Shown one piece after another: positions 1 through 45,180 of a stretch of DNA of 64,000 nt. Origin of the DNA: Escherichia coli (GTDB lineage Bacteria; Pseudomonadota; Gammaproteobacteria; Enterobacterales; Enterobacteriaceae); NCBI RefSeq assembly GCF_003334815.1, contig NZ_QOWO01000009.1; one strand, given 5' to 3'. A model generated the notes under the pieces. The model was not told the DNA's origin and searched no databases. It saw nothing but the letters and a program-made list of their open reading frames with translations. How positions within the stretch are numbered: position 1 is the stretch's first letter; each line of letters starts with the position of its first letter. The position numbers were made by a program, and so were the translations under genes.

Positions 1-516
1 AACGCCGCAGTGCGTATCCGCCAGCAGCATCCGGTCACGCAATTTACTGACCAGCTGCGCGGCATTATTCACGCCGACGAAAAACTGGCACGGGAAGATT
101 TTATCATTCATCGCCGTGATGGGTTGTTCGCCTACAACCTGGCTGTTGTGGTTGATGATCATTTCCAGGGCGTTACAGAAATAGTGCGTGGGGCTGATCT
201 GATTGAACCAACAGTAAGGCAAATCTCGCTGTACCAGCTTTTTGGCTGGAAAGTGCCAGATTACATTCATCTGCCGCTGGCGCTTAATCCACAAGGCGCT
301 AAACTTTCCAAGCAGAATCATGCGCCTGCGTTGCCGAAAGGCGATCCACGCCCGGTACTAATCGCGGCACTTCAATTTCTGGGGCAGCAGGCAGAAGCAC
401 ACTGGCAGGATTTCAGCGTCGAGCAAATCCTTCAGTCAGCCGTCAAAAACTGGCGGCTTACCGCCGTGCCCGAGTCGGCAATTGTAAATTCAACATTCTC
501 AAATGCGTCATGCTGA
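1..516 (+). CDS. gluQ: glutamyl-Q tRNA(Asp) synthetase, 5'-truncated at window edge (C-terminal 168 codons present)
   Basis: ORF 10..516 translation recognised as the GluQ-RS C-terminus; reading frame is open to the window start; lies immediately upstream of pcnB as in E. coli. Confidence 0.85.
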
Positions 517-575
517 GCTATGATTAGCCGCTATTTTTTTGTCCTGAATGATGTTTGACACTACCGAGGTGTACT

Positions 576-1973
576 ATTTTTACCCGAGTCGCTAATTTTT
601 GCCGCAAGGTGCTAAGCCGCGAGGAAAGCGAGGCTGAACAGGCAGTCGCCCGTCCACAGGTGACGGTGATCCCGCGTGAGCAGCATGCTATTTCCCGCAA
701 AGATATCAGTGAAAATGCCCTGAAGGTAATGTACAGGCTCAATAAAGCGGGATACGAAGCCTGGCTGGTTGGCGGCGGCGTGCGCGACCTGTTACTTGGC
801 AAAAAGCCGAAAGATTTTGACGTAACCACTAACGCCACGCCTGAGCAGGTGCGCAAACTGTTCCGTAACTGCCGCCTGGTGGGTCGCCGTTTCCGTCTGG
901 CTCATGTAATGTTTGGCCCGGAGATTATCGAAGTTGCGACCTTCCGTGGACACCACGAAGGTAACGTCAGCGACCGCACGACCTCCCAACGCGGGCAAAA
1001 CGGCATGTTGCTGCGCGACAACATTTTCGGCTCCATCGAAGAAGACGCCCAGCGCCGCGATTTCACTATCAACAGCCTGTATTACAGCGTAGCGGATTTT
1101 ACCGTCCGTGATTACGTTGGCGGCATGAAGGATCTGAAGGACGGCGTTATCCGTCTGATTGGTAACCCGGAAACGCGCTACCGTGAAGATCCGGTACGTA
1201 TGCTGCGCGCGGTACGTTTTGCCGCCAAATTGGGTATGCGCATCAGCCCGGAAACCGCAGAACCGATCCCTCGCCTCGCTACCCTGCTGAACGATATCCC
1301 ACCGGCACGCCTGTTTGAAGAATCGCTTAAACTGCTACAAGCGGGCTACGGTTACGAAACCTATAAGCTGTTGTGTGAATATCATCTGTTCCAGCCGCTG
1401 TTCCCGACCATTACCCGCTACTTCACGGAAAATGGCGACAGCCCGATGGAGCGGATCATTGAACAGGTGCTGAAGAATACCGATACGCGTATCCATAACG
1501 ATATGCGCGTGAACCCGGCGTTCCTGTTTGCCGCCATGTTCTGGTACCCACTGCTGGAGACGGCACAGAAGATCGCCCAGGAAAGCGGCCTGACCTATCA
1601 CGACGCTTTCGCGCTGGCGATGAACGACGTGCTGGACGAAGCCTGCCGTTCACTGGCAATCCCGAAACGTCTGACGACATTAACCCGCGATATCTGGCAG
1701 TTGCAGTTGCGTATGTCCCGTCGTCAGGGTAAACGCGCATGGAAACTGCTGGAGCATCCTAAGTTCCGTGCGGCTTATGACCTGTTGGCCTTGCGAGCTG
1801 AAGTTGAGCGTAACGCTGAACTGCAGCGTCTGGTGAAATGGTGGGGTGAGTTCCAGGTTTCCGCGCCACCAGACCAAAAAGGGATGCTCAACGAGCTGGA
1901 TGAAGAACCGTCACCGCGTCGTCGTACTCGTCGTCCACGCAAACGCGCACCACGTCGTGAGGGTACCGCATGA
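576..1973 (+). CDS. pcnB: poly(A) polymerase I; start taken as the non-canonical AUU codon at 576..578 (ORF track begins at an in-frame TTG at 555)
   Basis: Translation matches PAP I ([11 protein letters not shown]... through the basic C-terminal tail). No in-frame ATG exists near the N-terminus; pcnB is known to initiate at AUU. Confidence 0.9.
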
Positions 1974-2449
1974 CAGTGGCGTATATTGCCATAGGCAGCA
2001 ATCTGGCCTCTCCGCTGGAGCAGGTCAATGCTGCCCTGAAAGCATTAGGCGATATCCCTGAAAGCCACATTCTTACCGTTTCTTCGTTTTACCGCACCCC
2101 ACCGCTGGGGCCGCAAGATCAACCCGATTACTTAAACGCAGCCGTGGCGCTGGAAACCTCTCTTGCACCTGAAGAGCTACTCAATCACACACAGCGTATT
2201 GAATTGCAGCAAGGTCGCGTCCGCAAAGCTGAACGCTGGGGACCACGCACGCTGGATCTCGACATCATGCTGTTTGGTAATGAAGTGATAAATACTGAAC
2301 GCCTGACCGTTCCGCACTACGATATGAAGAATCGTGGATTTATGCTGTGGCCGCTGTTTGAAATCGCGCCGGAGTTGGTGTTTCCTGATGGGGAGATGTT
2401 GCGTCAAATCTTACATACAAGAGCATTTGACAAATTAAACAAATGGTAA
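1970..2449 (+). CDS. folK: 6-hydroxymethyl-7,8-dihydropterin pyrophosphokinase (HPPK)
   Basis: 159-aa ORF with HPPK sequence ([12 protein letters not shown]...); start overlaps the pcnB stop by 4 bp (ATGA). Confidence 0.95.
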
Positions 2450-2818
2450 TTTATTTATATTGCGAATATAAATATTTTCTGAAAATCATATCTCATCTCT
2501 TTCCTTAATTACGATTTTAGTTTAAACATCTCTTTGCGGAAATAATATAACTTCCTATAAATAAATATCAATCCCATCTCCATACCCTAACCAATTGCAC
2601 TTGTGAACTTATTTTTACTTAATTTTGAATTAAGTAAATTTAATTTGTTCAAAAGCTTCTAAAGTGCACAATAGGCGACCTAATGAACAATGGTTGTAAA
2701 TTTGGGTAACAAATATCATTGCTCATTAATATCTAACATTTGTTTCTCCTATTTGTGTCATGAATAGTCATTCTTCAAACATGTAGTCTGACTAATGGAA
2801 TTTTATTAAAGGATTTTT

Positions 2819-3403
2819 ATGTCTAAAAAATTAGGTTTTGCCCTGTCTGGTCTTATGCTGGCGATGGTTGCAGGTACTGCTTCTGCTGATATGGACGGCG
2901 GTCAGTTAAATATCAGTGGTCTGGTTGTTGATAACACCTGTGAAACCCGCGTTGACGGCGGTAACAAGGATGGTCTGATCCTGCTGCAAACCGCAACCGT
3001 TGGTGAAATCGATGCTGGCGTACTGAATGACACCGTTGGCGCTAAAGCTAAACCTTTCAGCATCACCGTTGACTGCAGCAAAGCAAATCCGAATCCAGGT
3101 AGCACGGCTAAAATGACCTTCGGTTCTGTTTTCTTTGGTAACAGCAAAGGGACTTTGAACAACGACATGTCTATTAACAACCCATCTGACGGCGTTAATA
3201 TCGCTCTACACAATATTGATGGTTCCACTATCAAACAGGTTCAAATTAACAACCCTGGCGATGTGTATACTAAAGCCCTGGATGCAACGACAAAATCTGC
3301 TGTTTATGATTTTAAAGCGTCTTACGTTCGTGCCGTCGCAGACCAAACAGCAACTGCTGGTTATGTAAAAACTAACACTGCATACACCATTACTTATCAG
3401 TAA
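2819..3403 (+). CDS. yadN: fimbrial major subunit-like protein with signal peptide
   Basis: 194-aa ORF, N-terminal signal peptide, fimbrial subunit fold signature (Cys pair, C-terminal beta strand); first gene of a chaperone-usher operon after an AT-rich leader. Confidence 0.9.
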
Positions 3404-3500
3404 GTATTCACCAGTTAAATTGATTGAATGAATATACAGGGAATAATAATTTCTATTTTATATTATTCCCTGTTTTAATTAACTCTATCAGGGATGGTTT

Positions 3501-4241
3501 ATGTTTTTTAACACCAAACATACAACAGCTTTATGCTTCGTAACCTGTATGGCTTTTAGTTCATCGTCTATTGCGGACATTGTCATTTCGGGTACTCGCG
3601 TAATATATAAAAGCGATCAAAAAAGTGTCAACGTACGTCTGGAAAATAAAGGGAATAACCCGTTGCTTGTCCAGAGTTGGTTAGATACTGGCGATGACAA
3701 CGCTGAGCCTGGCAGTATTACAGTCCCTTTTACTGCTACGCCGCCAGTATCGCGTATTGATGCCAAACGTGGGCAAACAATCAAATTAATGTACACAGCC
3801 AGCACCTCACTGCCTAAAGACAGAGAGAGCGTGTTCTGGTTTAACGTACTGGAAGTTCCACCAAAACCAGATGCAGAAAAGGTCGCGAATCAAAGCCTGC
3901 TGCAACTGGCATTTCGCACACGTATAAAACTTTTCTATCGCCCGGATGGATTGAAGGGAAATCCCTCTGAAGCCCCGTTAGCCCTGAAGTGGTTCTGGTC
4001 AGGTTCAGAAGGTAAGGCGTCATTACGAGTGACCAATCCAACCCCTTACTACGTCTCTTTTAGCAGTGGTGATTTAGAAGCTAGCGGTAAACGCTATCCG
4101 ATTGATGTGAAAATGATTGCACCATTTAGTGATGAGGTCATGAAAGTCAATGGCCTTAATGGCAAAGCGAATTCTGCAAAAGTGCATTTTTACGCCATTA
4201 ATGACTTTGGTGGCGCAATTGAAGGTAATGCCAGGCTGTAA
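3501..4241 (+). CDS. yadV: periplasmic fimbrial chaperone (PapD-like)
   Basis: 246-aa ORF with signal peptide and PapD-family chaperone motifs; sits between the pilin and usher genes. Confidence 0.9.
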   Translation: MFFNTKHTTALCFVTCMAFSSSSIADIVISGTRVIYKSDQKSVNVRLENKGNNPLLVQSWLDTGDDNAEPGSITVPFTATPPVSRIDAKRGQTIKLMYTASTSLPKDRESVFWFNVLEVPPKPDAEKVANQSLLQLAFRTRIKLFYRPDGLKGNPSEAPLALKWFWSGSEGKASLRVTNPTPYYVSFSSGDLEASGKRYPIDVKMIAPFSDEVMKVNGLNGKANSAKVHFYAINDFGGAIEGNARL

Positions 4242-4275
4242 TCAGGCAAGGATATAATTCCGCAGGAAGCATAGC

Positions 4276-6873
4276 GTGACTATAGAATATACTAAAAATT
4301 ATCATCATCTGACCCGTATCGCCACGTTTTGCGCGCTGCTGTATTGCAATACTGCTTTCAGTGCTGAACTCGTTGAATATGACCATACCTTCCTGATGGG
4401 GCAGAATGCATCTAATATTGATCTCAGCCGGTACAGTGAAGGTAACCCCGCTATACCGGGTGTTTACGACGTCAGTGTTTATGTAAACGACCAACCAATC
4501 ATTAACCAAAGTATTACATTTGTCGCAATTGAAGGAAAAAAGAACGCCCAGGCTTGTATCACATTAAAGAATTTATTGCAGTTTCATATTAATTCTCCCG
4601 ATATAAATAACGAAAAAGCCGTTCTGCTTGCCAGGGATGAAACGCTCGGCAATTGCCTCAATTTGACGGAAATTATCCCTCAGGCTTCTGTTCGTTATGA
4701 CGTTAACGATCAACGTCTGGATATAGACGTTCCTCAAGCCTGGGTAATGAAAAATTACCAAAACTATGTTGATCCATCGTTATGGGAAAACGGCATTAAT
4801 GCGGCCATGTTGTCATACAACCTCAACGGATATCATAGTGAAACCCCTGGTCGAAAAAATGAAAGCATTTATGCTGCATTTAACGGTGGGATGAATTTAG
4901 GTGCATGGCGACTGCGTGCCTCGGGCAACTACAACTGGATGACCGATTCTGGCAGTAATTATGATTTTAAGAATCGGTATGTTCAGCGTGATATCGCCTC
5001 GCTGCGTTCTCAACTCATTCTTGGTGAGTCTTATACGACGGGCGAAACCTTTGATTCCGTCAGTATCCGAGGCATTCGTTTATACAGTGACAGCCGCATG
5101 TTGCCTCCGACTTTAGCCAGCTTTGCGCCTATCATTCATGGCGTTGCCAATACCAACGCCAAAGTCACTATTACGCAAGGTGGCTATAAGATTTATGAAA
5201 CGACGGTGCCGCCAGGCGCTTTCGTCATTGATGATCTGAGTCCGTCAGGGTACGGCAGCGATCTTATTGTTACCATCGAAGAATCCGATGGCTCAAAGCG
5301 GACATTCTCGCAACCTTTCTCATCCGTTGTTCAAATGTTACGCCCTGGCGTTGGACGTTGGGATATTAGCGGCGGTCAGGTCTTAAAAGATGATATTCAG
5401 GATGAGCCTAATTTATTTCAAGCAAGCTACTACTACGGCCTGAATAACTATCTGACGGGTTATACCGGTATTCAGATAACCGATAATAACTATACCGCTG
5501 GTTTGTTAGGTCTTGGTCTGAATACTTCAGTTGGTGCATTTTCTTTCGATGTGACTCATTCCAATGTTCGTATCCCGGATGATAAAACATACCAGGGGCA
5601 AAGTTATCGTGTTTCCTGGAACAAGTTATTCGAAGAAACAAGTACTTCACTGAATATCGCGGCCTATCGCTATTCGACACAGAATTACCTTGGTCTTAAT
5701 GATGCACTAACTCTAATTGATGAAGTGAAACATCCCGAACAAGATCTTGAACCGAAATCCATGCGTAATTACTCACGCATGAAAAATCAGGTTACGGTCA
5801 GTATTAACCAACCGTTGAAATTTGAGAAAAAAGATTACGGTTCATTTTATCTTTCCGGAAGTTGGTCCGATTACTGGGCTTCCGGACAAAATCGTAGCAA
5901 TTACTCTATTGGCTACAGTAACAGTACATCCTGGGGCAGCTACAGTGTCAGTGCCCAGCGTTCATGGAATGAAGACGGCGACACTGACGATAGCGTTTAT
6001 CTTAGTTTCACCATTCCAATTGAAAAATTACTTGGCACTGAACAACGTACTTCAGGTTTCCAGAGTATTGATACTCAAATAAGCAGTGACTTTAAGGGTA
6101 ATAACCAACTCAACGTTAGCAGCAGTGGCTATAGCGATAACGCTCGCGTCAGTTATAGCGTGAATACTGGCTATACGATGAATAAAGCCAGCAAAGATTT
6201 GAGTTATGTTGGGGGTTATGCCAGCTATGAGTCACCATGGGGAACGCTGGCAGGTTCAATTTCTGCAAATAGCGATAACAGCCGTCAAGTTTCTCTCAGC
6301 ACCGACGGTGGTTTTGTATTGCATAGCGGTGGACTGACTTTCAGTAATGATAGTTTTAGCGACTCCGATACACTGGCGGTAGTTCAGGCTCCAGGTGCTC
6401 AAGGAGCGCGAATAAATTATGGCAACAGTACTATCGATCGATGGGGTTATGGTGTCACCAGCGCTCTTTCTCCTTATCATGAAAACCGTATCGCGCTGGA
6501 TATCAACGATCTTGAGAACGATGTTGAATTAAAAAGTACCAGTGCAGTAGCTGTACCGCGTCAGGGTTCAGTCGTCTTTGCTGATTTTGAAACCGTGCAA
6601 GGGCAATCAGCCATTATGAACATCACACGAAGTGATGGTAAAAATATTCCATTTGCTGCAGATATTTATGATGAGCAAGGCAATGTCATTGGTAATGTTG
6701 GACAGGGTGGACAAGCATTTGTTCGTGGTATTGAGCAGCAGGGAAATATCAGCATTAAATGGCTCGAACAAAGTAAACCCGTAAGTTGTCTTGCGCATTA
6801 TCAACAAAGCCCAGAAGCAGAAAAAATAGCACAATCTATTATTCTGAATGGAATTCGGTGTCAGATTCAGTAA
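4276..6873 (+). CDS. htrE: outer-membrane fimbrial usher (GTG start)
   Basis: 865-aa ORF, usher family, begins at GTG 4276; typical size and position in a chaperone-usher operon. Confidence 0.9.
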   Translation: MTIEYTKNYHHLTRIATFCALLYCNTAFSAELVEYDHTFLMGQNASNIDLSRYSEGNPAIPGVYDVSVYVNDQPIINQSITFVAIEGKKNAQACITLKNLLQFHINSPDINNEKAVLLARDETLGNCLNLTEIIPQASVRYDVNDQRLDIDVPQAWVMKNYQNYVDPSLWENGINAAMLSYNLNGYHSETPGRKNESIYAAFNGGMNLGAWRLRASGNYNWMTDSGSNYDFKNRYVQRDIASLRSQLILGESYTTGETFDSVSIRGIRLYSDSRMLPPTLASFAPIIHGVANTNAKVTITQGGYKIYETTVPPGAFVIDDLSPSGYGSDLIVTIEESDGSKRTFSQPFSSVVQMLRPGVGRWDISGGQVLKDDIQDEPNLFQASYYYGLNNYLTGYTGIQITDNNYTAGLLGLGLNTSVGAFSFDVTHSNVRIPDDKTYQGQSYRVSWNKLFEETSTSLNIAAYRYSTQNYLGLNDALTLIDEVKHPEQDLEPKSMRNYSRMKNQVTVSINQPLKFEKKDYGSFYLSGSWSDYWASGQNRSNYSIGYSNSTSWGSYSVSAQRSWNEDGDTDDSVYLSFTIPIEKLLGTEQRTSGFQSIDTQISSDFKGNNQLNVSSSGYSDNARVSYSVNTGYTMNKASKDLSYVGGYASYESPWGTLAGSISANSDNSRQVSLSTDGGFVLHSGGLTFSNDSFSDSDTLAVVQAPGAQGARINYGNSTIDRWGYGVTSALSPYHENRIALDINDLENDVELKSTSAVAVPRQGSVVFADFETVQGQSAIMNITRSDGKNIPFAADIYDEQGNVIGNVGQGGQAFVRGIEQQGNISIKWLEQSKPVSCLAHYQQSPEAEKIAQSIILNGIRCQIQ

Positions 6874-6889
6874 CTACAAGGGACGTCAA

Positions 6890-7459
6890 ATGATAAAAAC
6901 AACGCCACATAAAATAGTGATACTGATGGGAATATTATTATCACCCTCAGTATTTGCAACGGATATTAATGTAGAGTTTACAGCCACTGTCAAAGCGACA
7001 ACCTGTAACATCACACTTACTGGTAATAACGTCACGAATGATGGCAATAATAACTACACATTGAGAATCCCTAAGATGGGTCTGGATAAGATCGCGAATA
7101 AAACGACAGAATCTCAGGCTGATTTTAAACTGGTTGCCAGTGGGTGCAGCAGTGGCATCAGTTGGATTGATACCACTCTGACCGGAAATGCATCATCAAG
7201 CTCACCTAAGCTTATTATACCGCAGTCTGGTGATTCATCTTCGACGACAAGTAATATCGGTATGGGTTTCAAAAAACGGACTACTGATGATGCCACTTTC
7301 CTTAAACCTAACAGTGCGGAAAAGATACGCTGGAGCACAGACGAGATGCAGCCCGATAAGGGTCTTGAAATGACCGTTGCGCTACGTGAAACAGATGCAG
7401 GGCAAGGTGTACCGGGGAATTTTCGTGCACTGGCGACGTTTAATTTCATCTATCAATAA
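6890..7459 (+). CDS. yadM: fimbrial minor subunit-like protein
   Basis: ORF 6848..7459 in frame; likely true start at the internal Met (MIKTTPHK...) preceding a signal peptide, giving 189 aa. Confidence 0.85.
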   Translation: MIKTTPHKIVILMGILLSPSVFATDINVEFTATVKATTCNITLTGNNVTNDGNNNYTLRIPKMGLDKIANKTTESQADFKLVASGCSSGISWIDTTLTGNASSSSPKLIIPQSGDSSSTTSNIGMGFKKRTTDDATFLKPNSAEKIRWSTDEMQPDKGLEMTVALRETDAGQGVPGNFRALATFNFIYQ

Positions 7460-7470
7460 GAAGGATAATT

Positions 7471-8076
7471 ATGATGACATTTAAAAATTTACGTTATGGA
7501 TTATCCAGCAGTGTCGTTTTGGCTGCCTCATTGTTCAGCGTACTCTCTTATGCGGCAACAGACAGTATTGGACTGACCGTTATTACTACTGTAGAAATGG
7601 GTACTTGTACCGCTACATTAGTAAATGACTCTGATCAGGACATTTCTGTTGTTGATTTTGGTGATGTATATATTTCTGAAATCAATGCCAAGACCAAAGT
7701 AAAAACATTCAAACTCAAATTCAAAGACTGTGCGGGTATCCCCAATAAAAAAGCGCAAATAAAATTAACCAAGCGAGCCACATGCGAGGGAACTGCTAAT
7801 GACGGTGCGGGGTTTGCAAATGGTTCCACAGCCGCAGATAAAGCAAGTGCTGTCGCCGTTGAAGTCTGGAGCACTGTAACTCCGGCAACAGGGAGTGCAA
7901 CACAATTTAGCTGTGTAACACCAGCATCACAAGAGGTAACAATCTCCACTGCAGCCAATGCGGTCGTTTATTATCCGATGAGTGCACGCCTGGTCGTGGA
8001 AAAAAATAAAACCGTAAACAATGTCACTGCGGGTAAGTTTTCTGCACCAGCCACATTTACAGTAACCTATAACTAA
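7471..8076 (+). CDS. yadL: fimbrial minor subunit-like protein
   Basis: 201-aa ORF with signal peptide; pilin-like. Confidence 0.85.
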   Translation: MMTFKNLRYGLSSSVVLAASLFSVLSYAATDSIGLTVITTVEMGTCTATLVNDSDQDISVVDFGDVYISEINAKTKVKTFKLKFKDCAGIPNKKAQIKLTKRATCEGTANDGAGFANGSTAADKASAVAVEVWSTVTPATGSATQFSCVTPASQEVTISTAANAVVYYPMSARLVVEKNKTVNNVTAGKFSAPATFTVTYN

Positions 8077-8102
8077 CAGACTTACAGATTCAGGAACTAT
8101 AT

Positions 8103-8699
8103 ATGCATCCCACTCAACGTAAGCTGATGAAGAGAATAATTCTGTTTCTGTCATTACTGTTTTGCATCGCCTGTCCAGCCATTGCTGGACAGGATATTGA
8201 CCTTGTTGCCAATGTAAAAAACAGCACCTGCAAAAGCGGAATCAGTAACCAGGGTAATATTGATCTTGGCGTCGTTGGGGTGGGATATTTTTCAGGTAAT
8301 GTTACTCCTGAAAGTTATCAACCAGGTGGAAAAGAGTTCACTATCACTGTATCCGACTGTGCATTACAGGGAACTGGCGATGTGCTAAATCAGTTACATA
8401 TTGATTTTAGAGCCCTTAGCGGTGTCATGGCTGCTGGCTCTAGGCAAATATTTGCTAATGAAATTTCGTCAGGAGCAAGTAATGTAGGAGTAGTTATATT
8501 TTCTACTCAGGATTCGGCGAATACATTCAATGTTCTTAATGCTTCAGGCGGATCTCGTTCCGTTTATCCAGTAATGTCGGATGACATGAATGGTTCATCC
8601 TGGAAATTTAGCACCCGAATGCAAAAAATCGATCCTGCATTGAGTGTTACATCTGGTCAACTTATGAGCCATGTGTTAGTGGATATTTACTACGAATAA
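8103..8699 (+). CDS. yadK: fimbrial minor subunit-like protein
   Basis: 198-aa ORF with signal peptide; pilin-like. Confidence 0.85.
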   Translation: MHPTQRKLMKRIILFLSLLFCIACPAIAGQDIDLVANVKNSTCKSGISNQGNIDLGVVGVGYFSGNVTPESYQPGGKEFTITVSDCALQGTGDVLNQLHIDFRALSGVMAAGSRQIFANEISSGASNVGVVIFSTQDSANTFNVLNASGGSRSVYPVMSDDMNGSSWKFSTRMQKIDPALSVTSGQLMSHVLVDIYYE

Positions 8700-8748
8700 C
8701 AAACAAAAACAGCGCAAACCATAACAATAAAGAAACATTGGAGTAAAA

Positions 8749-9987
8749 ATGAAGACTATCTTCAGGTACATTCTTTTTTTAGCACTGTATTCTTGTTGTA
8801 ATACAGTCAGTGCATATACAAGTTTTATTGTGGGAAATAATGCAGGAGTTGATAACTATCGAGGCCCCTCCACTGCCGCACAGATGACCTTTAATTACAC
8901 ATCAACAGCAAGCAACTTGGTTTTTTATAAACCCACGCAGCTCGGCCCGACTGGGGTAAAAATGTACTGGTCATACCTGGATACAGGTACCGGTGGTGGT
9001 ATTCTTTACTGCAATACATCTGGCAGAGCGAATCCTGGTCCAATAACTATTGAAAATGCCATGGTCTATTCAGGTAAAGATTATGGCGGACATAAACTAT
9101 TTAATACATCTGTTCCTGGTCTGTATTACACCATGTTAATATCAAGGGTCTGGTCTGCATACGATACAATAACTGACATTCAATCGCCAGGAATCTATAT
9201 CGGAGATCCTTCCAACCAAGAATTTTTCTTTTCCGTCACAGACAGCGATCTACAAACTAAGGGTTGCAACAAAGCAGACGACTACGATAAGTTTTGGGCT
9301 ATTGGTGGTATAGTACACAACATAACTGTTGAATTTTATACAGATACTAATTTCGATCCTACACTTAATCAGCAAGTCCAGTTATCCAGTTCATCAAATT
9401 ACCTTTATTCGTTTAAGGCCTACAGTCCTGGTACAAAAGTTGTAGATCACAGCAACCACATTTATGTCAATTTCACACTGAATAATGTCAAATTAACCTT
9501 ACCAACATGTTTTACCTCCATACTTACCGGGCCATCAGTCAATGGTTCAACGGTTAGAATGGGAGAATATAGCTCTGGGACAATTAAAAATGGCGCTTCA
9601 CCTGTTCCCTTTGATATCTCGCTTCAGAATTGTATTCGTGTGCGTAATATTGAAACAAAACTCGTCACTGGAAAAGTAGGTACTCAAAACACACAACTGC
9701 TTGGTAATACGCTTACTGGAAGCACTGCCGCCAAAGGCGTTGGCGTACTCATTGAAGGTTTAGCAACCAGTAAAAATCCGCTAATGACATTAAAACCTAA
9801 TGATACGAATTCTGTTTATATAGATTATGAAACCGAAGATGACACCTCCGATGGGGTTTACCCTAATCAAGGTAACGGCACATCACAGCCTCTTCATTTC
9901 CAGGCAACATTAAAGCAAGACGGGAATATTGCTATCGAACCCGGCGAATTTAAAGCCACCAGTACTTTCCAGGTAACCTATCCCTGA
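8749..9987 (+). CDS. yadC: putative fimbrial tip adhesin (two-domain adhesin-pilin)
   Basis: 412-aa ORF with signal peptide; the large size and terminal position in the operon are typical of tip adhesins. Confidence 0.85.
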
Positions 9988-9990
9988 TAA

Positions 9991-10027
9991 CGTAGCAGCA
10001 CTGTCACCTTCTGGCAGTGCTGCTACG
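9991..10027 (+). terminator. strong stem-loop immediately after yadC (13-bp perfect stem: cgtagcagcactg / cagtgctgctacg)
   Basis: Perfect inverted repeat read directly in the sequence just 3' of the yadC stop; no clear U-tract, so it may be a Rho-independent-like terminator or an RNA-stabilising hairpin. Confidence 0.4.
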
Positions 10028-10100
10028 GATAAATCATTGCCCCCACCAATGTGACTGATAAAATGCCAGACAGCACAACATCAATTTATCAGGATACGTT

Positions 10101-10895
10101 ATGAAACCGACCACCATCTCCTTACTGCAGAAGTACAAACAGGAAAAAAAACGTTTCGCGACCATCACCGCTTATGACTATAGCTTCGCCAAACTCTTTG
10201 CTGATGAAGGGCTTAACGTCATGCTGGTGGGCGATTCGCTGGGCATGACGGTTCAGGGGCACGACTCCACCCTGCCAGTTACCGTTGCCGATATCGCCTA
10301 CCACACTGCCGCCGTACGTCGCGGCGCACCAAACTGCCTGCTGCTGGCTGACCTGCCGTTTATGGCGTATGCCACGCCGGAACAAGCCTTCGAAAACGCC
10401 GCAACGGTTATGCGTGCCGGTGCTAACATGGTCAAAATTGAAGGCGGTGAGTGGCTGGTAGAAACCGTACAAATGCTGACCGAACGTGCCGTTCCTGTAT
10501 GTGGTCACTTAGGTTTAACACCACAGTCAGTGAATATTTTCGGTGGCTACAAAGTTCAGGGGCGCGGCGATGAAGCGGGCGATCAACTGCTCAGCGATGC
10601 ATTAGCCTTAGAAGCTGCTGGGGCACAGCTGCTGGTGCTGGAATGCGTGCCGGTTGAACTGGCAAAACGTATTACCGAAGCACTGGCGATCCCGGTTATT
10701 GGCATTGGCGCAGGCAACGTCACTGACGGGCAGATCCTCGTGATGCACGACGCCTTTGGTATTACCGGCGGTCACATTCCTAAATTCGCTAAAAATTTCC
10801 TCGCCGAAACGGGCGACATCCGCGCGGCTGTGCGGCAGTATATGGCTGAAGTGGAGTCCGGCGTTTATCCGGGCGAAGAACACAGTTTCCATTAA
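10101..10895 (+). CDS. panB: 3-methyl-2-oxobutanoate (ketopantoate) hydroxymethyltransferase
   Basis: 264-aa ORF matching PanB. Confidence 0.95.
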
Positions 10896-10906
10896 GGAGT
10901 CACGTT

Positions 10907-37610: not shown

Positions 37611-37641
37611 GAGTTCCTGTCTTAAGCCACTTGCCGAAGTC

Positions 37642-37658
37642 AATTGGTCTTACCAATT
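37642..37658. promoter_or_regulatory. PdhR operator palindrome aattggtcttaccaatt
   Basis: Perfect 7-bp inverted repeat (AATTGGT-N3-ACCAATT) read about 30 bp upstream of the pdhR start; matches the known PdhR box in the pdhR-aceEF-lpd promoter. Confidence 0.8.
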
Positions 37659-38062
37659 TCATGTCTGTGACGCTAAAGTAACAAAGTATTCACCTTATGT
37701 CCATACAGGTTTTGATTGAAATCATGAAACTGTGCACATTTTAACAACTTGACATATATAACGTTTCAAAGTTGTAACTATGCACAAATGTAGACTTTAC
37801 GTAGGAAAGGAGTTTTTTAACGATTATTAAACTATAAAAATCCGAATTGAACCGATTCACTTACCAATTTTGTGATTTTTAATTCAATTAAAACGAATTT
37901 AAATTCATTCTACATATTGAGAGGGGTTGAGGCTGAGCTTTACAAACGGTTTCTTTTTAAGCAACTCATCTTCAACCATGCATAAAGCGGGTGCATTCGC
38001 TGCCGCATACCATTATTCTTGATCTGACGGAAGTCTTTTTGTAACAATTCAAACTTCTTTGA

Positions 38063-38080
38063 TGTAAACAAATTAATACA
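38063..38080. promoter_or_regulatory. candidate TyrR box (tgtaaa-N6-aataca) in the aroP promoter region
   Basis: Partial match to the TGTAAA-N6-TTTACA consensus about 70-90 bp upstream of the aroP start; aroP is known to be TyrR-regulated, but the exact site is not verified here. Confidence 0.3.
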
Positions 38081-38150
38081 ACAAACGGAATTGCAAACTT
38101 ACACACGCATCACTGCGTAGATCAAAAAAACAACCACCGCACGAGGTTTC

Positions 38151-42152: not shown

Positions 42153-42593
42153 ATGGACAAGCAACGCGGTTTTACACTTATCGAACTGATGGTGGTTATT
42201 GGCATCATTGCCATTTTAAGCGCCATTGGTATTCCCGCTTATCAAAACTACCTGCGCAAAGCCGCACTCACCGACATGCTACAAACCTTTGTGCCTTACC
42301 GTACCGCCGTAGAGTTGTGCGCGCTGGAACATGGTGGATTAGATACCTGCGACGGTGGCAGCAATGGCATTCCCTCGCCTACCACCACCCGCTATGTTTC
42401 AGCCATGAGTGTGGCAAAGGGCGTGGTGTCGCTGACCGGGCAAGAAAGTCTCAATGGGCTAAGCGTCGTCATGACACCGGGTTGGGATAACGCAAACGGC
42501 GTCACCGGCTGGACGCGCAACTGCAATATTCAAAGTGACAGCGCATTGCAGCAAGCCTGCGAAGATGTCTTCCGCTTTGATGACGCCAACTAA
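42153..42593 (+). CDS. ppdD: type IV prepilin (major pilin) with N-terminal class III signal (GFTLIELMVV)
   Basis: 146-aa ORF with the characteristic prepilin leader MDKQRGFTLIELMVVIGIIAILSAIGIPAY. Confidence 0.93.
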   Translation: MDKQRGFTLIELMVVIGIIAILSAIGIPAYQNYLRKAALTDMLQTFVPYRTAVELCALEHGGLDTCDGGSNGIPSPTTTRYVSAMSVAKGVVSLTGQESLNGLSVVMTPGWDNANGVTGWTRNCNIQSDSALQQACEDVFRFDDAN

Positions 42594-42602
42594 GGAGCGG
42601 CA

Positions 42603-43988
42603 ATGAATATTCCACAGCTCACTGCCCTGTGTCTGCGTTATCATGGAGTCTTGCTGGATGCCAGCGAAGAGGTGGTTCATGTTGCGGTAGTCGATGCACC
42701 TTCGCATGAGCTACTGGACGCATTGCATTTCGCTACCACCAAACGTATTGAGATCACCTGCTGGACGCGCCAACAAATGGAAGGTCACGCCAGTCGCACA
42801 CAACAGACATTGCCCGTAGCTGTTCAGGAGAAGCATCAGCCCAAAGCAGAGTTGCTAACTCGAACGTTACAATCTGCGCTGGAACAACGCGCGTCTGATA
42901 TTCATATCGAACCAGCGGACAATGCCTACCGCATCCGCTTGCGTATCGACGGCGTATTGCATCCTTTACCGGATGTTTCACCGGATGCCGGAGTCGCATT
43001 AACCGCCAGATTAAAAGTGCTGGGAAACCTGGATATTGCGGAACATCGCCTGCCGCAGGACGGGCAATTCACTGTCGAACTGGCAGGAAACGCCGTCTCA
43101 TTTCGTATTGCGACCTTACCATGTCGGGGTGGTGAAAAGGTGGTATTAAGGTTGTTACAGCAGGTGGGTCAGGCACTGGATGTCAACACGCTTGGAATGC
43201 AGCCGTTACAACTGGCGGACTTTGCTCATGCCTTGCAACAACCACAGGGACTGGTGCTGGTAACTGGCCCTACCGGCAGCGGCAAAACGGTCACGCTTTA
43301 TAGTGCCCTGCAAAAGCTGAATACCGCTGACATTAATATTTGTAGCGTCGAAGATCCAGTTGAGATCCCCATAGCCGGACTAAACCAGACGCAAATCCAT
43401 CCGCGTGCCGGACTCACCTTTCAGGGCGTTTTGCGTGCGTTATTGCGCCAGGATCCTGACGTCATCATGATCGGAGAGATCCGCGATGGCGAAACAGCAG
43501 AGATCGCTATTAAAGCGGCGCAAACTGGTCACCTGGTGTTGTCTACCCTACACACTAATTCCACCTGCGAAACGCTGGTACGTTTACAGCAAATGGGGGT
43601 CGCCCGCTGGATGCTATCATCGGCGCTTACGCTGGTAATAGCCCAGCGTCTGGTACGCAAACTTTGCCCACATTGTCGCCGGCAGCAAGGGGAGCCCATC
43701 CACATTCCAGACAATGTATGGCCATCGCCGCTGCCCCACTGGCAGGCACCCGGTTGTGTACATTGCTACCACGGTTTTTATGGTCGTACGGCCTTATTTG
43801 AAGTTCTGCCCATAACGCCGGTCATTCGTCAGCTTATTTCCGCTAATACCGACGTTGAATCGCTGGAAACGCACGCACGACAGGCGGGTATGCGTACGCT
43901 TTTTGAAAACGGCTGCCTGGCCGTAGAGCAAGGCTTAACCACCTTTGAAGAGTTAATCCGCGTACTGGGGATGCCGCATGGCGAGTAA
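42603..43988 (+). CDS. hofB: type IV pilus assembly ATPase (GspE/PilB family)
   Basis: 461-aa ORF with Walker A (GPTGSGKT) and C-terminal tetracysteine motif (CPHC...CVHC). Confidence 0.93.
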   Translation: MNIPQLTALCLRYHGVLLDASEEVVHVAVVDAPSHELLDALHFATTKRIEITCWTRQQMEGHASRTQQTLPVAVQEKHQPKAELLTRTLQSALEQRASDIHIEPADNAYRIRLRIDGVLHPLPDVSPDAGVALTARLKVLGNLDIAEHRLPQDGQFTVELAGNAVSFRIATLPCRGGEKVVLRLLQQVGQALDVNTLGMQPLQLADFAHALQQPQGLVLVTGPTGSGKTVTLYSALQKLNTADINICSVEDPVEIPIAGLNQTQIHPRAGLTFQGVLRALLRQDPDVIMIGEIRDGETAEIAIKAAQTGHLVLSTLHTNSTCETLVRLQQMGVARWMLSSALTLVIAQRLVRKLCPHCRRQQGEPIHIPDNVWPSPLPHWQAPGCVHCYHGFYGRTALFEVLPITPVIRQLISANTDVESLETHARQAGMRTLFENGCLAVEQGLTTFEELIRVLGMPHGE

Positions 43989-45180
43989 GCAACTCTGGCG
44001 CTGGCATGGCATAACCGGCGACGGCAATGCGCAAGATGGGATGCTATGGGCAGAGAGCCGTACTTTACTGCTTATGGCACTACAGCAACAGATGGTTACC
44101 CCACTAAGCCTGAAGCGAATCGCCATCAATTCTGCGCAGTGGCGAGGAGATAAAAGCGCGGAAGTCATTCATCAACTGGCGACGCTACTCAAAGCAGGGT
44201 TAACGCTTTCTGAAGGGCTGGCTCTGCTGGCGGAACAGCATCCCAGTAAGCAATGGCAAGCGTTGCTGCAATCGCTGGCGCACGATCTCGAACAGGGCAT
44301 TGCTTTTTCCAATGCCTTATTACCCTGGTCAGAGGTATTTCCGCCGCTCTATCAGGCGATGATCCGCACGGGTGAACTGACCGGTAAGCTGGATGAATGC
44401 TGCTTTGAACTGGCGCGTCAGCAAAAAGCCCAGCGTCAGTTGACCGACAAAGTGAAATCAGCGTTACGTTATCCCATCATCATTTTAGCGATGGCAATCA
44501 TGGTGGTTGTGGCAATGCTGCATTTTGTTCTGCCGGAGTTTGCCGCTATCTATAAGACCTTCAACACCCCACTACCGGCACTAACGCAGGGGATCATGAC
44601 GCTGGCAGACTTTAGTGGCGAATGGAGCTGGCTGCTGGTGTTGTTCGGCTTTCTGCTGGCGATAGCCAATAAGTTGCTGATGCGCCGACCGACCTGGCTT
44701 ATAGTGCGGCAGAAATTGCTGTTACGCATCCCGATTATGGGTTCACTGATGCGGGGACAAAAACTCACGCAGATCTTTACGATTCTGGCGCTGACACAAA
44801 GTGCAGGCATTACTTTTTTACAGGGCGTAGAGAGCGTCAGAGAAACAATGCGCTGCCCGTACTGGGTGCAACTTCTGACACAAATCCAGCACGATATCAG
44901 TAACGGTCAACCCATCTGGCTGGCGCTAAAAAATACCGGTGAGTTTAGCCCGCTCTGTTTGCAATTAGTGAGAACAGGAGAGGCATCCGGCTCTCTGGAT
45001 CTCATGTTAGACAACCTCGCCCATCATCATCGGGAAAACACAATGGCGCTGGCGGATAACCTCGCAGCCTTACTGGAACCGGCGTTGCTGATCATAACGG
45101 GAGGAATTATTGGTACGCTGGTGGTGGCAATGTATCTGCCAATTTTCCATTTAGGCGATGCGATGAGTGGGATGGGATAA
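43978..45180 (+). CDS. hofC: type IV pilus inner-membrane platform protein (GspF/PilC family)
   Basis: 400-aa ORF with duplicated GspF domains; overlaps the hofB end by 11 bp. Confidence 0.93.
   Translation: MASKQLWRWHGITGDGNAQDGMLWAESRTLLLMALQQQMVTPLSLKRIAINSAQWRGDKSAEVIHQLATLLKAGLTLSEGLALLAEQHPSKQWQALLQSLAHDLEQGIAFSNALLPWSEVFPPLYQAMIRTGELTGKLDECCFELARQQKAQRQLTDKVKSALRYPIIILAMAIMVVVAMLHFVLPEFAAIYKTFNTPLPALTQGIMTLADFSGEWSWLLVLFGFLLAIANKLLMRRPTWLIVRQKLLLRIPIMGSLMRGQKLTQIFTILALTQSAGITFLQGVESVRETMRCPYWVQLLTQIQHDISNGQPIWLALKNTGEFSPLCLQLVRTGEASGSLDLMLDNLAHHHRENTMALADNLAALLEPALLIITGGIIGTLVVAMYLPIFHLGDAMSGMG

Follow-up and report, generated by a model that had tools for sequence, protein, structure and literature searches.

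The yad chaperone-usher fimbrial operon of Escherichia coli K-12: a putative lineage-restricted insertion at the folK-panB junction

We analysed a stretch of Escherichia coli DNA of 64,000 nucleotides (contig NZ_QOWO01000009.1, hereafter the window), in which positions 2450-9987 almost certainly represent the chaperone-usher fimbrial operon known as yad (loc2) in E. coli K-12; the interval starts at the base that follows the folK stop codon and ends with the stop codon of yadC. The operon appears to be a lineage-restricted insertion between folK and panB, with its left junction inside the 3' end of folK, and its alleles seem to have been exchanged by recombination, with the adhesin end diverging fastest. 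The operon itself, its silencing by H-NS, the ligand and receptor of the adhesin YadC and the allelic variation of yadC have all been published already, and cassette-like evolution at the folK/panB junction is the one mildly new angle.

Results

We searched window positions 2000-10200 against 5,426 complete E. coli genomes using megablast, and K-12 derivatives such as ER1709 matched over the full length with 100.0% identity. The RefSeq annotation of ER1709 names the genes yadN, yadV, htrE, yadM, yadL, yadK and yadC, flanked by pcnB-folK on one side and panB-panC-rpnC-panD on the other. The window is oriented opposite to the MG1655 convention, and its listing of open reading frames (ORFs) places seven consecutive plus-strand ORFs between folK (1970-2449) and panB (10101-10895), all of them intact and with signal peptides and invariant pilin motifs.

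An earlier note on this sequence had assigned the seven products as major pilin, chaperone, usher, three minor pilins and tip adhesin, and family searches bore these roles out: YadV, HtrE, YadL, YadK and YadC passed their curated NCBIfam cut-offs, and the Pfam Fimbrial domain PF00419 was found in YadN and YadM and in the C-terminal part of YadC. The plus-strand gene yadN (2819-3403), annotated under that name, encodes the major pilin with PF00419 at residues 31-194. It is followed on the same strand by yadV (also ecpD; 3501-4241), whose periplasmic chaperone matches NF007398 over residues 1-246 with 472 bits against a cut-off of 285, and by htrE (4276-6873), whose outer-membrane usher matches NF007337 with 1701 bits against a cut-off of 830 as well as FimD- and LpfC-type usher families. 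The minor pilin genes, again on the plus strand, are yadM (6890-7459; PF00419 at residues 29-189, E = 1.6e-25), yadL (7471-8076; NF011795, 448 bits, cut-off 392) and yadK (8103-8699; fimbrial-like protein family NF011794, 311 bits, cut-off 132), and the last plus-strand gene, yadC (8749-9987), belongs to the fimbrial-like adhesin family NF007268 (885 bits, cut-off 382). The features by which a chaperone-usher operon is recognised, a PapD-like chaperone (YadV), an usher (HtrE) and Fimbrial-domain pilins, are thus all present. In YadN, Cys41/Cys86, Gly181 (14th residue from the C terminus) and the penultimate Tyr193 are invariant across seven alleles. As for translation starts, the longest yadM ORF begins at 6848 inside htrE and the ATG at 6890 has a ribosome-binding site, AGGGA, ahead of it; the yadC ATG at 8749 has GGAG 5 nt upstream, and the RefSeq ER1709 start corresponds to 8737.

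The folK-panB site was then compared across enterobacterial species using one genome per GTDB species, anchored on FolK; 80 loci were returned, K-12 proteins were mapped to them and 77 were informative. In 65 of the 77 enterobacterial species the folK-panB gap measures 98-155 bp (about 120 bp), and these empty sites include Salmonella enterica subsp. arizonae and diarizonae, Klebsiella, Enterobacter, most Citrobacter, Kluyvera and Kosakonia. The remaining 12 species (Escherichia species, three Pseudocitrobacter, four Citrobacter and Superficieibacter) have exactly this site filled by an operon of 7.4-9.0 kb whose genes run in the same N-V-E-M-L-K-C order. Two hallmarks of a horizontal island, an atypical composition (described below) and an empty site in relatives, were therefore found, in line with the foreign origin suggested by the earlier note. 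A recent acquisition by K-12 is contradicted, as operons are found there throughout the genus Escherichia, strains scored as 'Yad-negative' in the literature among them.

The left junction lies in the plus-strand 3' end of folK (2390-2449), where the last 17-20 or so codons encode an allele-specific FolK tail. GC content falls to 0.35 here, compared with 0.52 for folK codons 1-140, and the invariant FolK columns end at about G141 across seven E. coli alleles. A tail of the form (E/A/D)KPxxW is kept in 59 of 66 empty-site species, and the K-12-type tail differs from it. The tail is thus AT-rich, specific to the yad allele and unlike that of empty sites, which places the island junction inside folK. 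On the right, the plus-strand panB promoter region (10028-10100) is core DNA outside the island: the last 75 bp or so upstream of panB align between K-12 and the empty folK-panB spacers, and a promoter-like site at 10037-10064 consists of TTGCCC, a 16-nt spacing and TAAAAT with an upstream TG. The limits of the island are now set to within a few codons of folK on one side and about 75 bp upstream of panB on the other.

Base composition sets the operon apart from the rest of the window. The GC content of 2450-9987 is 0.416 versus 0.523 elsewhere, in agreement with the earlier note, and per-gene values range from 0.40 to 0.45 for yad genes versus 0.46-0.56 for the others. GC at third codon positions (GC3) is 0.34-0.41 in the seven yad genes, whereas the minimum among the 43 other genes of the window is 0.49 (Mann-Whitney p = 2e-8); neither GC nor codon usage of the operon is therefore indistinguishable from that of its flanks, the outcome that the note had said would count against it. 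The extreme is the plus-strand folK-yadN intergenic region (2450-2818; 369 bp), which would contain the yad promoter/control region and 5' untranslated region (UTR) and is the expected target of H-NS. With a GC content of 0.266 it is the lowest 369-bp stretch in the 64 kb, which upholds the description of the upstream region as extremely AT-rich; just 0.024% of the 369-bp stretches reach so low a value, every one of them falls at the yad site, and the lowest value away from it is 0.314, in the pdhR-aroP spacer. TpA steps occur 11.1 times per 100 bp in 2450-2818 versus 4.6. The phrase 'long AT-rich leader' used earlier holds for the AT-richness, but 'leader' was an assumption, the region being promoter plus 5' UTR.

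The AT-rich upstream region is long (201-601 bp) and of low GC content (0.24-0.32) in all 19 alleles, so that its AT-richness looks maintained and not merely a relic. Five blocks within it are conserved across six alleles, at 2464-2474, 2626-2635, 2665-2673 (TGCACAATA), 2723-2729 (TCATTAA) and 2795-2830, and the block at 2626-2635 falls inside a palindrome at 2614-2636 with arms of 9 bp, TTACTTAAT-N5-ATTAAGTAA. The palindrome and TGCACAATA, the blocks best preserved in an otherwise divergent upstream region, are candidate regulator or promoter sites, and TCATTAA and the block at 2795-2830 are further candidates for regulation. An AT-rich hairpin at 2452-2474, just past the folK stop codon, was considered as a terminator and discarded since it is no more stable than shuffled sequences (z = -0.87), although GAATATAAATA is conserved.

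Divergence between alleles is concentrated in the operon. Protein identities to K-12 from six other E. coli alleles are 90-96% for FolK and 96-98% for PanB, and within the operon they are 44-100% for YadN, 61-98% for YadV, 75-98% for HtrE, 50-99% for YadM, 40-98% for YadL, 41-85% for YadK and 21-69% for YadC, the YadC range including realignment. The comparison of yadC alleles proposed in the earlier note has already been published: variation per gene and in the lectin domain has been described across 911 yad operons (PMC13245861). In strain d1-58, identity to K-12 is 98-100% from YadN to YadL and drops to 83% in YadK and 66% in YadC, indicating an internal recombination breakpoint.

The E. 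coli alleles are polyphyletic. Trees built from ushers, chaperones and pilins show O55:H7 clustering with E. albertii (usher identity 75%) and with a Pseudocitrobacter allele, not with K-12 (56%). Both O55:H7 (phylogroup E) and ETEC4079 fall below the published threshold of 80% HtrE identity and would count as 'Yad-negative', yet a syntenic, deeply divergent chaperone-usher operon of seven or six genes sits at folK-panB in each (O55:H7 locus L003, 12733-19677; ETEC4079 locus L004, 10799-17343). Some copies are decaying, with a frameshifted usher gene in the O55:H7 strain DEC5B and, in ETEC4079, a frameshifted yadL and no yadK. Prevalence surveys that apply the 80% HtrE threshold miss such divergent syntenic alleles, and phylogroup E is not truly Yad-less. 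Locus L014, from Pseudocitrobacter vendiensis, is unusually close to E. coli in its flanks: identities are 98% for PanB and 93% for FolK residues 1-148, compared with 90% for PcnB and with 86-93% for PanB of empty sites, a hint that core DNA in the flanks travelled along with the cassette.

We further assessed codon usage with a codon adaptation index (CAI) whose weights were taken from six highly expressed genes of the window (aceE, aceF, lpdA, acnB, secA and ftsZ). Codon usage is mixed: low adaptation is seen in six yad genes (CAI 0.31-0.39), but yadN, despite its low GC3, is well adapted, with a CAI of 0.63 and 0.5% rare codons, level with housekeeping genes. The high value for yadN is consistent with selection favouring bursts of high shaft-subunit output in an operon supposed to be 'cryptic'. 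Another silent pilus system in the window, the type IV pilin operon ppdD-hofB/gspE-hofC (42153-45180), also has low CAI values (0.34-0.43), with a normal GC content, unlike yad.

Two RNA hairpins stand out on the plus strand. The yadN-yadV hairpin (3436-3477) has a perfect 13-bp stem followed by UUUU (-15.6 kcal/mol, z = -3.6). A stable hairpin occupies the same position in seven of seven E. coli alleles (z from -3.1 to -4.4), usually with a U-rich tract next to it and with stem sequences that differ. It may be a partial terminator or attenuator, or else an mRNA-stabilising stem-loop, and together with its U-tract and the codon adaptation of yadN it would yield an excess of the major subunit. 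An Rfam scan of positions 1-14000 at E <= 1 gave two matches only, both at chance level: one to mir-786, which overlies the yadN-yadV hairpin, and one to a snoRNA. The post-yadC hairpin (9991-10027), right after the yadC stop codon, has a GC-rich 16-bp stem (-30.4 kcal/mol, z = -6.9). The spacer between adhesin gene and panB could be extracted in 17 loci including K-12, and in 15 of the 16 others a strong hairpin of different sequence comes after the adhesin gene, the one in C. werkmanii being weak. As a putative operon-end terminator or insulator, it would stop the transcript ahead of the panB promoter.

In YadC, PF00419 is limited to residues 265-411, where G399 and Y411 are invariant across the alleles compared, and the N-terminal 240 residues or so matched no Pfam family and had no PDB relative by sequence search. 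As the PDB sequence search gave no match, folds were compared instead. An AlphaFold2 model (pLDDT 83.6, built from 17 homologues) returned the two-domain tip adhesins LpfD (5afo), CupB6 (5cyl) and FimH (1qun) as top full-length structural matches, each with probability 1.00. As modelled, YadC has the layout of a two-domain tip adhesin, with an N-terminal receptor-binding domain and a pilin domain at the C terminus. Judging by family membership and by chaperone-usher biology, YadV would chaperone the pilin subunits in the periplasm and HtrE would polymerise and secrete them, with YadC and its lectin domain placed at the tip, YadK, YadL and YadM acting as adaptor or minor subunits and YadN forming the shaft.

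The statement in the earlier note that the receptor specificity of YadC is not established is out of date. Annexin A2 has been published as a host receptor of YadC and D-xylose as an inhibitor (PMC6921372, 2019), D-xylose is also a published YadC ligand, and a 2025 review lists both for YadC (PMC12442223). Ligand and receptor are also treated in PMC13245861, according to which the binding pocket is not experimentally defined. A published glycan array on the purified YadC lectin domain was not found in the literature examined. Yad is already recognised as a colonisation factor of extraintestinal pathogenic E. coli (ExPEC) and as an anti-adhesion target.

Elsewhere in the window, the panC and panD genes are separated by rpnC/yadD (11832-12734, minus strand), which encodes a recombination-promoting nuclease. 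The median distance between panC and panD over 65 loci of other genera is 100 bp, and an rpnC-like gene occurs there in just one of them (S. enterica diarizonae). With the yad insertion and the rpnC insertion, the E. coli pan cluster is thus interrupted twice. In AT-richness, the pdhR-aroP spacer (37611-38150; 540 bp, GC 0.35) ranks second in the window. Compared with the ER1709 record, which is otherwise identical, the window shows a 1-bp indel in the spacer between yadE and yadI (~14622-14684), and mraY (62618-63700) is intact here and annotated as frameshifted in ER1709.

Discussion

That H-NS silences yad, as the earlier note had proposed, has been shown experimentally (PMC13245861, 2026), and the hns deletion experiment it called for has been performed there in strain CFT073. 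Activity of the yad promoter rose more than 100-fold in the CFT073 hns deletion and was restored by complementation with H-NS, YadN protein and surface fimbriae appeared only without H-NS, and H-NS occupancy by ChIP-seq (chromatin immunoprecipitation sequencing) and repression at the yadN promoter region are part of the published record (PMC13245861). The same study reports that serum induces yad and that deletion of yad attenuates bloodstream infection (PMC13245861). For K-12 it cites Korea 2010 and Larsonneur 2016 on H-NS repression, on control by temperature and ArcA and on xylose binding, and as cited in PMC13245861 and PMC7098969 these two papers have K-12 Yad fimbriae assembling and mediating adhesion when expressed, with induction by low temperature and anaerobiosis. 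According to this literature, H-NS bound to the AT-rich upstream region and operon keeps yad almost silent in laboratory conditions, and environmental or host cues relieve the repression. In K-12 the published cues are low temperature and, acting via ArcA, anaerobiosis; in ExPEC the cue is serum. Genomic SELEX (systematic evolution of ligands by exponential enrichment) has also located an RpoH-holoenzyme site in the yadV-htrE spacer (4242-4275) and an RpoE-holoenzyme site inside htrE (PMC5493296); a role as internal stress promoters is possible and would suit the origin of the name htrE, 'high-temperature requirement'.

Several observations weigh against this picture of an inserted, H-NS-silenced operon with defined transcript ends. 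The H-NS high-affinity 10-mer is not enriched in 2450-2818. A/T tracts, to which the earlier note had drawn attention, are there in number (8 runs of at least 4, 2.6 times the window density), but they do not exceed what composition predicts (8.6 +/- 2.5 in shuffles), so that the sequence case for H-NS comes down to AT-richness and TpA density. A scan for the sigma-70 consensus gave no plus-strand promoter-like site in 2450-2818; its total matches equal the shuffle expectation, which makes the scan uninformative for placing PyadN. The post-yadC hairpin has no U-tract and may not be a classical intrinsic terminator, and the silencing steps of the scheme come from the literature, whereas the transcript-end steps are our own inference. 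As for insertion, no integrase or transposase is annotated between folK and panB, no shared 8-mer or longer and no direct or inverted repeats were found at the junctions, and no tRNA appeared in the Rfam scan of 1-14000 (nothing reached the gathering score; no dedicated tRNA scan was run). Acquisition or exchange would have proceeded by homologous recombination through the flanks.

It is tempting to speculate that the folK/panB junction is a cross-genus cassette site, at which whole yad-type modules are swapped among Escherichia, Pseudocitrobacter, Citrobacter and Superficieibacter by homologous recombination via the flanking core genes, each module bringing along a C-terminal FolK tail of its own, a long AT-rich control region, the seven genes and a hairpin at the end; we regard this as a real possibility, held with somewhat less than even confidence. 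If true, it accounts for the polyphyletic E. coli alleles, for xenologous Yad types in 'Yad-negative' strains (phylogroups D and E) and for an essential folate enzyme (HPPK) whose tail varies with the fimbrial allele. The competing view, that yad is an ancient, vertically inherited resident of Escherichia whose low GC and divergence reflect selection (through control by H-NS and through diversifying or balancing selection acting on subunits exposed at the surface) and not horizontal transfer, seems unlikely to us. It draws on the finding that every Escherichia genome examined is occupied with the same gene order, including O55:H7, E. albertii and E. whittamii, on the retention of a long, low-GC upstream region by each of the 19 alleles regardless of host GC, a pattern suggestive of selection, and on the lack of detected mobility genes or flanking repeats. 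Vertical descent is hard to reconcile, however, with usher, chaperone and pilin trees that interleave E. coli with E. albertii, Pseudocitrobacter, Citrobacter and Superficieibacter alleles, with E. coli ushers that differ by up to 44-48% next to PanB proteins that differ by 2-4%, with the breakpoint in d1-58, with the closeness of P. vendiensis PanB and FolK to E. coli relative to its PcnB, and with a site that is empty in most species.

Two other explanations fare much worse. The K-12 operon could be a decaying, non-functional relic and not a regulated organelle, given its very low expression in laboratory culture (hence 'cryptic'), the poor codon adaptation of six of its seven genes and the pseudogenised copies in other strains (the usher frameshift of O55:H7 DEC5B, the yadL frameshift of ETEC4079 and insertion sequence (IS) insertions in yadC). 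The seven K-12 ORFs are intact, however, yadN is strongly codon-adapted, and K-12 Yad fimbriae are described, in the cited work of Korea 2010 and Larsonneur 2016, as assembling, adhesive and inducible, so that a relic is highly improbable. Just as little credence is given to a phase-variation switch in the upstream region, either fim-like invertible DNA or a pap-like Dam/Lrp (Lrp, leucine-responsive regulatory protein) methylation system, in place of a simple H-NS-silenced promoter. Many E. coli chaperone-usher operons are phase-variable, and several inverted repeats of AT-rich sequence do occur in the region, among them 2500-2526/2612-2638 and the palindrome spanning 2614-2636. These repeats are nevertheless imperfect (70-84%) and made of low-complexity AT sequence, fim-like inverted repeats bounding the entire 2450-2818 region were not found, GATC is absent throughout it, and between folK and yadN there is no recombinase and no papI/papB-like gene, only ORFs of chance length. 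A switch was therefore rejected, and the absence of GATC, of a regulator ORF and of perfect repeats fits the published statement that Yad is not phase-variable (PMC13245861).

The conserved hairpins and the conserved upstream blocks offer concrete targets for mapping the yad promoter and the serum-responsive activator that counteracts H-NS.

Comparison with Known Fimbrial Systems

The closest known system is Yad itself, as described in K-12 and in uropathogenic (UPEC), avian pathogenic (APEC) and enterohaemorrhagic E. coli (EHEC) with the order yadN-ecpD/yadV-htrE-yadMLKC; the operon of the window is this very locus, with 100% nucleotide identity to K-12. UPEC alleles differ from the K-12 allele mainly in YadK and YadC (YadC 62-69% identity).

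Outside E. coli, the nearest NCBIfam families are those of Salmonella Sta (staA-G), with E values of 1e-35 for YadN-StaA, 1e-43 for YadM-StaD and 1e-51 for YadL-StaE. Sta has the same layout of seven genes, three of them for minor pilins and one for a large adhesin, and we take it to belong to the gamma-4 chaperone-usher clade as well. The Yad pilins score under the Sta equivalog cut-offs and are thus relatives at the level of paralogs, not orthologs; in the two Salmonella genomes scanned, arizonae and diarizonae, the folK-panB site is empty. PMC7098969, citing Nuccio & Baumler 2007, assigns the Yad usher to the gamma-4 clade, and the position of Sta as the source of the nearest pilin families is consistent with that placement.

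Type 1 (Fim) and P (Pap) pili share with Yad the chaperone-usher logic, donor-strand pilins, the Cys pair, the penultimate Tyr and a two-domain tip adhesin, and FimH chains are among the top structural matches of the YadC model. A stem-loop after the major pilin gene is common in Fim/Pap-like operons. Unlike Fim and Pap, Yad has neither a FimB/FimE invertible promoter nor PapI/PapB and Dam GATC sites, its minor pilins number three and are ordered differently, and the YadC lectin domain is without a Pfam family or a PDB sequence relative.

Yad also resembles the other H-NS-silenced, cryptic operons of chaperone-usher type in K-12 (ycb/elf, yeh, yfc, yra, sfm and ybg; Korea 2010), which likewise have a low GC content and an AT-rich promoter region and, according to the literature, are silent in laboratory culture and de-repressed in hns mutants. 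What sets Yad apart among these is a defined sugar ligand, a host receptor and in vivo virulence data.

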